DNA of 64,000 nt from Pseudomonadota bacterium (GCA_021325135.1 JAJPHT010000027.1:32001-96000); one strand, 5' to 3'; counted from the stretch's first letter, positions 49,204-50,618 are shown. Translations and numbers: made by a program. The notes: generated by a model from the letters alone, not told the origin.

Positions 49204-49491
49204 TTGCGTGCCATCGCCAGCATCTCCTTCGTGCTCTTCGCGCTCCTCCTGGGCGCCGTTCCCGCCGCCTCGGCGGAGCCCGTCCTCTCCAGGATCATCG
49301 ACGACAACGGCCTTCCCACCGTCATCCCCCAGTTCGACTGCAACAGCAACACGCTCTGGTGTCACGTCCCGTGCGACAACGGCCCGGTGTCCGCCTTCTG
49401 CGACTACTACGGCACCCACGGCGGCGCGAGCTGCATCATCCTCATCCGCCTCACGAGCACCTGCATCAACCCGCTCCCCGGGCAGGGGTGA
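49204..49491 (+). CDS. Secreted six-Cys mini-protein 1
   Basis: TTG start after GGTGA (alternative ATG 49168); ends RLTSTCINPLPGQG. Confidence 0.85.
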   Translation: MRAIASISFVLFALLLGAVPAASAEPVLSRIIDDNGLPTVIPQFDCNSNTLWCHVPCDNGPVSAFCDYYGTHGGASCIILIRLTSTCINPLPGQG

Positions 49492-49496
49492 TGCCG

Positions 49497-49772
49497 ATGC
49501 GCGCCCTCCTGAGCGTCTCCCTCGTTCTCCTCGCGCTCCTGCTGAGCGCGGTCCCCGCCTCCGCGGCGCAGACCGTCTCCGACCTCGGCGGCCCCCTGGA
49601 CCAGTTCGTCCGCCTCGACTGCAAGACCCGCGATCCCTTCTGCCACTTCCGTTGCACGGGCGGCCCGGTCGGGCTCCTGTGCGACTACGACTCCACGCAC
49701 GGCACGGTGAGCTGCGTCGTGCTGATCCGCCTCACGAGCACCTGCATCAATCCGCTCCCCCAGCACGGGTGA
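49497..49772 (+). CDS. Secreted six-Cys mini-protein 2
   Basis: MRALL signal peptide; ends RLTSTCINPLPQHG. Confidence 0.85.
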   Translation: MRALLSVSLVLLALLLSAVPASAAQTVSDLGGPLDQFVRLDCKTRDPFCHFRCTGGPVGLLCDYDSTHGTVSCVVLIRLTSTCINPLPQHG

Positions 49773-49777
49773 TCTCC

Positions 49778-50056
49778 ATGCGCGCCCTCCTCGGCATCCC
49801 CCTCGTCCTCCTGATCCTCCTGAGCGTCGTCCCCGCCGCCTCGGCGGACTCCGTCGTCCTCACGGACGTCCTGGACAACGGCCTCCCCACCGTCGTCCCG
49901 CGCTTCGACTGCGGCAGCAACACGCTCTGGTGCCACTTCCAGTGCGACGGAGGCCCCGTCTCGACCTTCTGCGACTGGAACGGCTCCCACGGCCCCGCGA
50001 GCTGCATCATCCTCATCCGCTTCACGAGCACCTGCGTCAACCCGCTTCCCCAGTGA
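49778..50056 (+). CDS. Secreted six-Cys mini-protein 3
   Basis: MRALL signal peptide; ends RFTSTCVNPLPQ. Confidence 0.85.
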   Translation: MRALLGIPLVLLILLSVVPAASADSVVLTDVLDNGLPTVVPRFDCGSNTLWCHFQCDGGPVSTFCDWNGSHGPASCIILIRFTSTCVNPLPQ

Positions 50057-50076
50057 TCCCCCCAAGAGGCAAGACC

Positions 50077-50331
50077 ATGCGAACCCTGACCACCCTCTCC
50101 ATCGTCCTCCTCACGATCTTCTGCGCCGTGCCCGCGTCCGCCGCGCCGGTCGCCCACGCCACCGACCTGCTCAGCCTCGACTGCGCGGCGGCGACCTCGT
50201 ACTGCTGGGTCCCCTGTCGGCCCGGCCCCGTGGGCATCATGTGTGGCCACGACACCCCGGACCACGGCTACGCCGGCTGCATCGTCTTCATCACCTACAC
50301 GAGCACCTGCATCAACCCGACCCCCCTCTGA
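50077..50331 (+). CDS. Secreted six-Cys mini-protein 4
   Basis: MRTL signal peptide; ends TYTSTCINPTPL. Confidence 0.85.
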   Translation: MRTLTTLSIVLLTIFCAVPASAAPVAHATDLLSLDCAAATSYCWVPCRPGPVGIMCGHDTPDHGYAGCIVFITYTSTCINPTPL

Positions 50332-50342
50332 GGCCTGATATC

Positions 50343-50618
50343 ATGCGCGCCACGATCGGAATCGCCCTCGCCCTGCTGACGGTCCTCTTCGCCGGCCTCG
50401 CCTCGGCGGAGCCCCTCGCCTACGTGATCGAAAGGTCCGTGATCGATCCCTCGCAGATCGACGCCGTCTGCGTCGTGCCCTCCTGCTGGCCGACCTGCGA
50501 TCCCGGCCCCGTGGCCGTCTGGTGCAACCACGACACGCCCGGGCACGGCCGTGCGGCCTGCCTGGTGTTCGTCACGTTCACGAGCACCTGCATCAACCCG
50601 CTCCCCCAGGGCTCGTGA
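50343..50618 (+). CDS. Secreted six-Cys mini-protein 5
   Basis: MRAT signal peptide; ends TFTSTCINPLPQGS. Confidence 0.85.
   Translation: MRATIGIALALLTVLFAGLASAEPLAYVIERSVIDPSQIDAVCVVPSCWPTCDPGPVAVWCNHDTPGHGRAACLVFVTFTSTCINPLPQGS

Follow-up and report, generated by a model that had tools for sequence, protein, structure and literature searches.

The pln and blp multi-bacteriocin regulons of lactic acid bacteria and streptococci carry tandem genes for small secreted peptides that share an export signal and diverge in their mature parts, and a locus-specific operator repeated before each operon switches the operons on together. The peptides have double-glycine leaders and ABC exporters, are cationic and mostly poor in cysteine (Cys), and each is accompanied by an immunity gene. 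LanI-type immunity proteins, such as NisI and SpaI, are cluster-encoded, co-regulated with the precursors, and bind the peptide at the outer face of the membrane. Here we describe a 64,000-nucleotide stretch (the window; GCA_021325135.1, JAJPHT010000027.1:32001-96000, deposited as Pseudomonadota bacterium) in which a lanthipeptide-type gene cluster is followed by five adjacent paralogous genes, P1 to P5 (49204-50618, plus strand), with products of 84-95 amino acids. The array resembles the pln and blp regulons in its tandem small secreted genes, its divergent mature parts and its repeated locus-specific motif. It differs from them in its Sec signal, its acidic six-Cys proteins of 61-71 residues, the absence of visible immunity genes and its archaeal host.

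The initial annotation, made from the sequence alone, had proposed five adjacent plus-strand paralogs masked by longer false starts, and all five open reading frames (ORFs) were confirmed, including the TTG start at 49204. The genes and their possible starts are the following.

49204-49491, plus strand: P1, 95 amino acids from TTG; mature part of 71 residues with six Cys; G+C content at third codon positions (GC3) 0.96; GGTGA 5 nucleotides before the TTG.
49168, plus strand: alternative in-frame ATG of P1, which would give 107 amino acids and overlaps the stop of the upstream gene.
49497-49772, plus strand: P2, 91 amino acids; mature part of 67 residues with six Cys; GGGGTGA, containing the P1 stop, 5 nucleotides before the ATG.
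49491, plus strand: alternative ATG of P2, overlapping the P1 stop.
49778-50056, plus strand: P3, 92 amino acids; mature part of 69 residues with six Cys; GGGTGA, containing the P2 stop, 5 nucleotides before the ATG.
50077-50331, plus strand: P4, 84 amino acids; mature part of 61 residues with six Cys; tail TSTCINPTP; AAGAGG 7 nucleotides before the ATG.
50343-50618, plus strand: P5, 91 amino acids; mature part of 69 residues with six Cys; first Cys displaced by two residues (C-x4-C).

The longer frames that conceal these genes in the ORF list all start with GTG (47785-49491, 49208-50056, 49359-49772, 49930-50331 and 50241-50618). Read in frame, P1-P5 have a GC3 of 0.95-0.98, with 0.55-0.67 and 0.49-0.58 at the first and second codon positions, a pattern that matches the other genes of the window. 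Every start is preceded at 5-9 nucleotides by a Shine-Dalgarno-like GGTGA or GAGG element. The most divergent pair is still matched by BLASTP at an E-value of 2e-12, which places the paralogy well outside chance, and 17-20 alignment columns, the Cys frame among them, are invariant, the number depending on the alignment. Because of the in-frame GC3, the Shine-Dalgarno-like elements, the invariant columns and the BLASTP match, P1-P5 are, on sequence grounds, genuine protein-coding genes forming a tight five-gene operon. Gaps between the genes measure 5-20 nucleotides and hold no extra ORFs, Tandem Repeats Finder reports a 281-bp period across the array, and P1 and P3 are the closest paralogs (65% amino acid identity). 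The TTG at 49204 is preferred over the ATG at 49168 as the P1 start, since only the former has GGTGA 5 nucleotides upstream and since it aligns with the Met-Arg-Ala start of the paralogs. The last Gly codon and TGA stop of P1 and of P2 (49485-49491 and 49766-49772) together spell GGGTGA, the Shine-Dalgarno-like element of the next gene. This overlap of stop and ribosome-binding element from P1 through P2 to P3 suggests translational coupling along the array.

The five products share one architecture. Each begins with Met-Arg or Leu-Arg; next come a 12-15-residue hydrophobic stretch and then VPA[AS][SA]A (VPAASA, VPASAA) or LASA. The Sec-type signal peptide attributed to each is borne out by a sequence heuristic, which finds the n-h-c layout ending in AxA. 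The residue after the predicted cleavage region is Glu, Gln, Asp or Pro, never Cys, and inspection of the five sequences revealed no twin-arginine motif, no lipobox Cys and no transmembrane segment in the mature part. P1-P5 are thus very probably exported by Sec and cut after AxA, and because they lack a transmembrane segment and a lipobox they should be soluble and diffusible outside the cell. The mature proteins have 61-71 residues, a net charge of -1 to -4 and an isoelectric point (pI) of 4.4-6.3. Each contains exactly six Cys, hence an even number, in the pattern C-x4/6-C-x3-C-xxGPVxxxC-x5/6-HGxxxC-x6-TSTC[IV]NP[LT]P, P5 being the copy with x4; this pattern, as first described, fits all five proteins residue for residue. 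The invariant features include GPV, HG, the tail TSTC-x-NP-x-P and an Asp close to the first Cys; the hydrophobic strand preceding the tail is likewise conserved. The N-terminal arm (12-21 residues) and the loops between the Cys vary from copy to copy. By the proportion of nonsynonymous differences (pN), the arm is the most changeable part (0.30-0.66) and the tail the least (0.13-0.36).

A three-disulfide fold is predicted from the sequence. AlphaFold, run with the five-sequence alignment, gave a predicted local distance difference test (pLDDT) score of 39 for mature P2 and 52 for the Cys core of P3. The models contain only a low-confidence hairpin, made up of the segment that follows GPV and the hydrophobic strand that leads into the tail. 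A Foldseek search with the better, still low-confidence model (pLDDT 52) returned nothing at E≤0.001.

The family was at first described as one not recognised, and the searches agree. Pfam-A and NCBIfam assigned P1-P5 to no family, giving only chance-level rows (AA_permease, E 0.038; lachnocin, E 0.05-0.08, against a cut-off of 40 bits). A profile of the five proteins retrieved only P1-P5 themselves in a word-indexed search of 5.8 billion clustered proteins and in an exhaustive hmmsearch of 1.84 billion representatives; the other rows of the latter were repetitive proteins matching a short stretch repeatedly. Scans with back-translated motifs, covering one genome per species for 185,579 species as well as 241 million metagenome records, gave pattern matches and no relative, and there was no match to P1-P5 among PDB sequences or in the ESM atlas. 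Six-frame searches of the window's own genome, of 60 relatives and of the order found nothing outside the genus.

Within the genus there is one credible relative, judged by sequence. It was found as a weak six-frame match (E 0.0145) in another Thermoplasmata metagenome-assembled genome (MAG), G002, where it is a single-copy ORF of 90 amino acids (L039:10005-10277, G002:C122) that NCBI names a hypothetical protein of a Thermoplasmata archaeon MAG. The product has a similar signal peptide, an "LGG...D...C" arm and the same C-x9-C spacing, and ends in TGTCVNPLP directly before the stop. Its four Cys align with the first, fourth, fifth and sixth of P1-P5, and the C-x3-C pair is absent. The gene is solitary, flanked by an FHA/HTH-type and an enoyl-CoA hydratase gene, both of housekeeping type, with no genes for ribosomally made peptides with post-translational modifications (RiPPs) in the 20 kb fetched, and the two HopA1-type lyase (LanY) genes of G002 lie on other contigs. 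The window's genome has no copy at the syntenic position. In a six-frame scan of 400 genomes of the phylum, the pattern T-C-[IVM]-N-P-x-P ends a small ORF with a signal peptide only in the window's genome (five times) and in G002 (once); the 22 other matches are scattered over random frames, about as frequent as matches to the reversed pattern used as a control. The family thus appears confined to one genus, with the array expanded so far in this genome only. We propose that the family would be native to the genus, its expansion and its placement under cluster control having taken place in this genome alone.

A third genome of the genus, G001, encodes a secreted four-Cys ORF of 82 amino acids (L080:8872-9120, G001:C68; GC3 0.91) in a non-RiPP context. 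It ends ...RIIARCVDNPDFPPELP-stop, a C-terminus of the form "...RCVDNP...P", and may be a still more distant member of the genus-level family.

The array is tied to the neighbouring cluster by a short motif. The features concerned are listed here.

49146-49162, plus strand: motif GCAA-N7-MAACAA, 17 bases, in the last codons of the HExxH protease gene; it probably serves the mini-protein operon as promoter or operator.
47792-49168, plus strand: membrane HExxH protein (M50-like, daptide-protease-like), directly upstream of the array, with the operon motif in its 3' end.
40229-47762, plus strand: lanthipeptide-type cluster, with six LENTSI-leader precursors, two luciferase-like oxidoreductases, an APH-type kinase, a HopA1-type lyase and a LanC cyclase.
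38412-40013: membrane-anchored helix-turn-helix (HTH) regulator, with an N-terminal hydrophobic segment, an outer domain of about 300 residues rich in glycosylation sequons, and a C-terminal HTH_20/ArsR-type domain.

The window holds seven matches to the motif, against 1.25 expected from shuffles. These are also the only exact copies on either strand of the whole 3.77 Mb genome, where base composition predicts about two, and all seven are on the plus strand. Six of them precede the regulator gene, the precursor genes A1 (with enzyme genes), A2, B2 and B3, and the mini-protein array. The distance from motif to start is 42 nucleotides for the TTG of P1, 47-48 for B2 and B3, and 66-91 for A2 and A1, so that P1, like the other members of the regulon, has an exact same-strand copy within about 100 nucleotides upstream. 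The chance of a copy in a given stretch of 60 nucleotides is about 1e-5. The proposed tie through a shared motif has thus held up in the sequence statistics. Because a genome-unique motif lies 42 nucleotides before P1, and in view of that low chance expectation, the array is best read as a transcription unit of its own, the sixth of the cluster's regulon, and it is probably switched on together with the cluster. The seventh copy (5782-5798, plus strand) is 32 kb away on the upstream side of the cluster, where the G+C content is lower (0.60-0.68 over positions 1-16000 of the window, against about 0.70-0.74 elsewhere). This stretch may be a foreign or mobile segment.

The six precursors of the cluster are Cys-rich and share the LENTSI leader, and none of the five mini-proteins resembles them, in agreement with the earlier statement that they carry no RiPP leader. 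Between P1-P5 and the precursors BLASTP finds only Cys-driven fragments (E≥0.002) and hhalign gives a probability of 0.6%; P1-P5 have signal peptides and no LENTSI leader. The HExxH protein is closest to the daptide intramembrane protease (NF041824, daptide_HExxH, E 5e-13, below the cut-off) and weakly M50-like (PF02163, E 1.6e-4, likewise below the cut-off). The cluster is flanked by an NYN-domain gene, the regulator gene and a PhzF-like gene. The first of these encodes a protein with NYN and OST-HTH/LOTUS domains and lies divergently (36873-38243, minus strand), immediately upstream of the regulator gene. On the other side, convergent with the array, is an ORF of 134 amino acids (50835-51239, minus strand; GC3 0.91) with a signal peptide ending in a lipobox-like LAGC, without a Pfam match and without the cluster motif in front. 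Its product is possibly a lipoprotein, and would have a more classical immunity-protein shape than P1-P5.

The host genome is a MAG of 3.77 Mb in 51 contigs and 94% complete. It encodes TBP, which in a control panel was found only in archaea, the window carries a deoxyhypusine synthase gene, and NCBI attributes a protein of the same genus to "Thermoplasmata archaeon". By these markers the host, an uncultured soil organism, is a Thermoplasmata archaeon.

Related clusters in other genomes were compared with the window. Homologs of the HExxH protein are present in 9 of the 400 sampled genomes of the phylum. At two of the three closest homologous loci the gene order is protease, kinase, lyase, cyclase, with nothing array-like after the protease. 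No array of this kind was found at eleven loci from other genomes with a related protease or LanY, namely ten fetched loci with a related protease or lyase (three read gene by gene) and two loci of G002, less the overlap. A scan of the ten fetched loci for small ORFs with a signal peptide and at least four Cys gave nothing coding-like, the same scan recovering all five genes of the window as a positive control. ORF listings of the two G002 LanY loci, filtered by GC3, contained no comparable array. The earlier expectation of a link to RiPP clusters would have failed if the family occurred mostly away from them, which these data do not show; yet the G002 relative does sit away from lanthipeptide-type genes, and this setting leans against an obligate role matched to RiPPs.

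Two loci of G002 were noted in the course of this comparison. L044 (G002:C23:19500-35339, at about 6300-13400) is a second lanthipeptide-type locus in the genus, with kinase, HopA1-type lyase and LanC genes, an M50-like membrane ORF with an HExxH motif (HEGSH) and an ABC-ATPase-like ORF with a Walker A motif (GPNGAGKT); its organisation is unlike that of the window cluster. L043 (5101-5853, G002:C89) encodes a secreted Cys-rich protein of about 190 amino acids, unrelated in sequence to P1-P5; a kinase gene and short ORFs resembling precursors lie about 5 kb away.

The function that we tentatively favour for P1-P5 is that of diversified soluble extracellular binding or effector proteins released with the lanthipeptides. 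Exported by Sec and freed of the signal peptide after AxA, each would fold outside the cell into an acidic mini-protein of 61-71 residues held by three disulfides, in which the fixed Cys frame and conserved tail would carry the variable arm and loops for binding. Released alongside the lanthipeptides, the five would constitute a second, unmodified branch of what the cluster produces. This reading is favoured because P1-P5 appear diffusible and not anchored, because molecules of this kind are typically diversified in tandem on a fixed disulfide frame, and because the nearest relative lies outside a RiPP context and related clusters do without the array.

Several points weigh against it. Neither structure model is usable, which leaves even the three-disulfide fold a prediction. 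The mature proteins are acidic, which most membrane-active antimicrobial peptides are not, and no small immunity-like gene accompanies them. The ratio of nonsynonymous to synonymous changes (dN/dS, NG86) among the paralogs, 0.65-1.67, was dropped as a sign of diversifying selection; values near 1 cannot be read in that way, since the luciferase-like enzymes LLM1 and LLM2 of the cluster, taken as a control, give 1.18, and with GC3 at about 0.96 the saturation of synonymous differences sets in near 0.43. The motif is a candidate, not a demonstrated, promoter or operator, and immunity and accessory genes also use pathway-specific operators, so that co-regulation cannot separate an effector from an immunity protein. 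The assignment of function as a whole is deduced from sequence.

Among the alternatives, P1-P5 might be immunity, sequestering or carrier proteins, each binding one class of lanthipeptide outside the cell and either protecting the producer or keeping very hydrophobic multi-ring peptides soluble. They carry the precursors' private motif, no other immunity or export gene is found within the motif-bounded cluster, and the conserved tail would serve as a common docking part and the variable arm as the specific part. LanI proteins, however, are lipoproteins or membrane-associated and much larger, whereas P1-P5 match no known family and have neither a membrane anchor nor a lipobox with Cys at +1. 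A binder free to diffuse would act to neutralise the lanthipeptide and not to protect the cell. Precursor cores and mini-proteins are both acidic and so offer no charge complementarity, related clusters in other genomes have no counterpart, and the G002 relative is not beside RiPP genes. It has also been argued that if such peptides target bacteria, an archaeon may need no immunity (bioRxiv 10.64898/2026.07.27.741052). Taken together, immunity or carriage seems unlikely, if still a serious candidate.

A narrower version makes P1-P5 the cognate partners of five lanthipeptide product types, the arm of each recognising one peptide and the tail docking to a feature common to all. The initial annotation had suggested comparing the number of copies with the number of precursors, and five mini-proteins against six precursors give no clean pairing. 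A five-to-five match, which would speak for the broader immunity or carrier role too, is possible if A1 and A2 (pN 0.074) are counted as one product type. We regard such cognate pairing as rather improbable.

To a similar degree we doubt that P1-P5 are ordinary lineage-specific secreted proteins that happen to lie beside the cluster, the motif belonging to the 3' end of the protease gene or being non-functional. The stand-alone member in G002, and possibly the one in G001, both in non-RiPP contexts, and the related clusters without an array are what such bystanders would lead one to expect. Against this, the motif is unique in the genome to the cluster, has a single orientation and is spaced before P1 as it is before B2 and B3, and the array begins less than 40 nucleotides after the last gene of the cluster on the same strand.

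P1-P5 could also act as extracellular signals sensed by the outer domain of the regulator (38412-40013), so that the shared motif would complete a circuit of auto-induction. Lantibiotic and class II bacteriocin loci are, as a rule, auto-induced by peptides. The regulator, with its hydrophobic segment, outer domain of about 300 residues and C-terminal HTH, has a suitable layout, and the motif precedes both its gene and the array. Five divergent ligands for one receptor would be unparsimonious, however, and the inducer of lantibiotics is usually the mature peptide itself; we hold this role to be highly doubtful. Lastly, it is very improbable that P1-P5 are further substrates of the cluster, with TSTC dehydrated and cyclised before export or, in the manner of the Eep-type proteases that make pheromones from signal peptides, with their signal peptides cut by the HExxH protease into hydrophobic peptides: the invariant Thr-Ser-Thr-Cys does recall the TSC/TCC blocks of the precursors and the array directly follows the M50-like protease gene, but P1-P5 lack a LENTSI leader and do not resemble the precursors, and Sec export requires an unfolded chain.

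At the sequence level the family is new, and only one genome, that of an uncultured organism, is known to carry the array. To our knowledge, almost nothing has been reported on proteins that non-halophilic archaea secrete as weapons, signals or accessory factors, and we know of no accessory protein family yet tied to lanthipeptide clusters with split enzymes (kinase, lyase, cyclase). The locus offers a compact, testable case: five small proteins that can readily be synthesised or expressed, six candidate peptide partners, and one candidate each for operator and membrane regulator. If P1-P5 bind or complement the lanthipeptides, genome mining should heed small ORFs with signal peptides at cluster edges, which are easily masked in genomes of high G+C content. 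If they act alone, they would provide a new disulfide-rich scaffold from archaea. Cognate pairing, if true, would mean that proteins and RiPPs are paired for immunity, delivery or activation, a system for which we know of no counterpart described in archaea or for lanthipeptides.

P1-P5 were also compared with further known classes. A lead to the thrombospondin type-1 repeat (TSR), taken from the best foreign match, P0006, was rejected. TSRs, like P1-P5, have six Cys in about 55-60 residues, and the local match (hhalign 85.7%) covers 22 columns, comprising C-x9-C-x-N-P-x-P and the [RK]-x-T-x-T strand. P1-P5 lack the WxxW/RxR layer and have no match to PF00090 at E≤0.1. In a TSR the remaining Cys follow the shared segment, whereas in P1-P5 they precede it and the protein ends directly after. 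The likeness therefore appears to be a common short motif in the tail, set in a different Cys topology, and not homology. As for SCIFF peptides, P1-P5 have no NCBIfam match and do have signal peptides, and no radical SAM family was found among the proteins scanned. With Sec-dependent class II bacteriocins they share a Sec signal peptide, as judged by the sequence heuristic, and not the cationic character (pI 4.4-6.3) or a cognate immunity gene alongside.

Functional parallels lie further afield. The apoproteins of enediyne clusters, for example that of neocarzinostatin, are small, acidic, Sec-secreted and disulfide-stabilised, and bind and carry the cluster product. They differ from P1-P5 in fold, in length (about 110 residues), in having two disulfides, in being single-copy and bacterial, and in their non-peptide ligand, and could serve as a functional analogy only, for a role as carriers. 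Halocin C8 and other archaeocins are secreted archaeal proteins of small size, rich in disulfides and either acidic or hydrophobic, and P1-P5, with their predicted disulfides, resemble them in this. Halocin C8 originates in a larger precursor exported by Tat, from which its immunity protein is released as well, whereas P1-P5 are stand-alone Sec pre-proteins encoded in a five-gene array of a non-halophile lineage, with no sequence relation to it (no family match). Archaeocins, Halocin C8 included, provide the context for secreted archaeal proteins used outside the cell (bioRxiv 10.64898/2026.07.27.741052). A co-released binding or effector set of the kind tentatively favoured here would be comparable to the multi-bacteriocin regulons and to disulfide-rich toxin and inhibitor families, whose variable binding loops sit on a fixed Cys frame.

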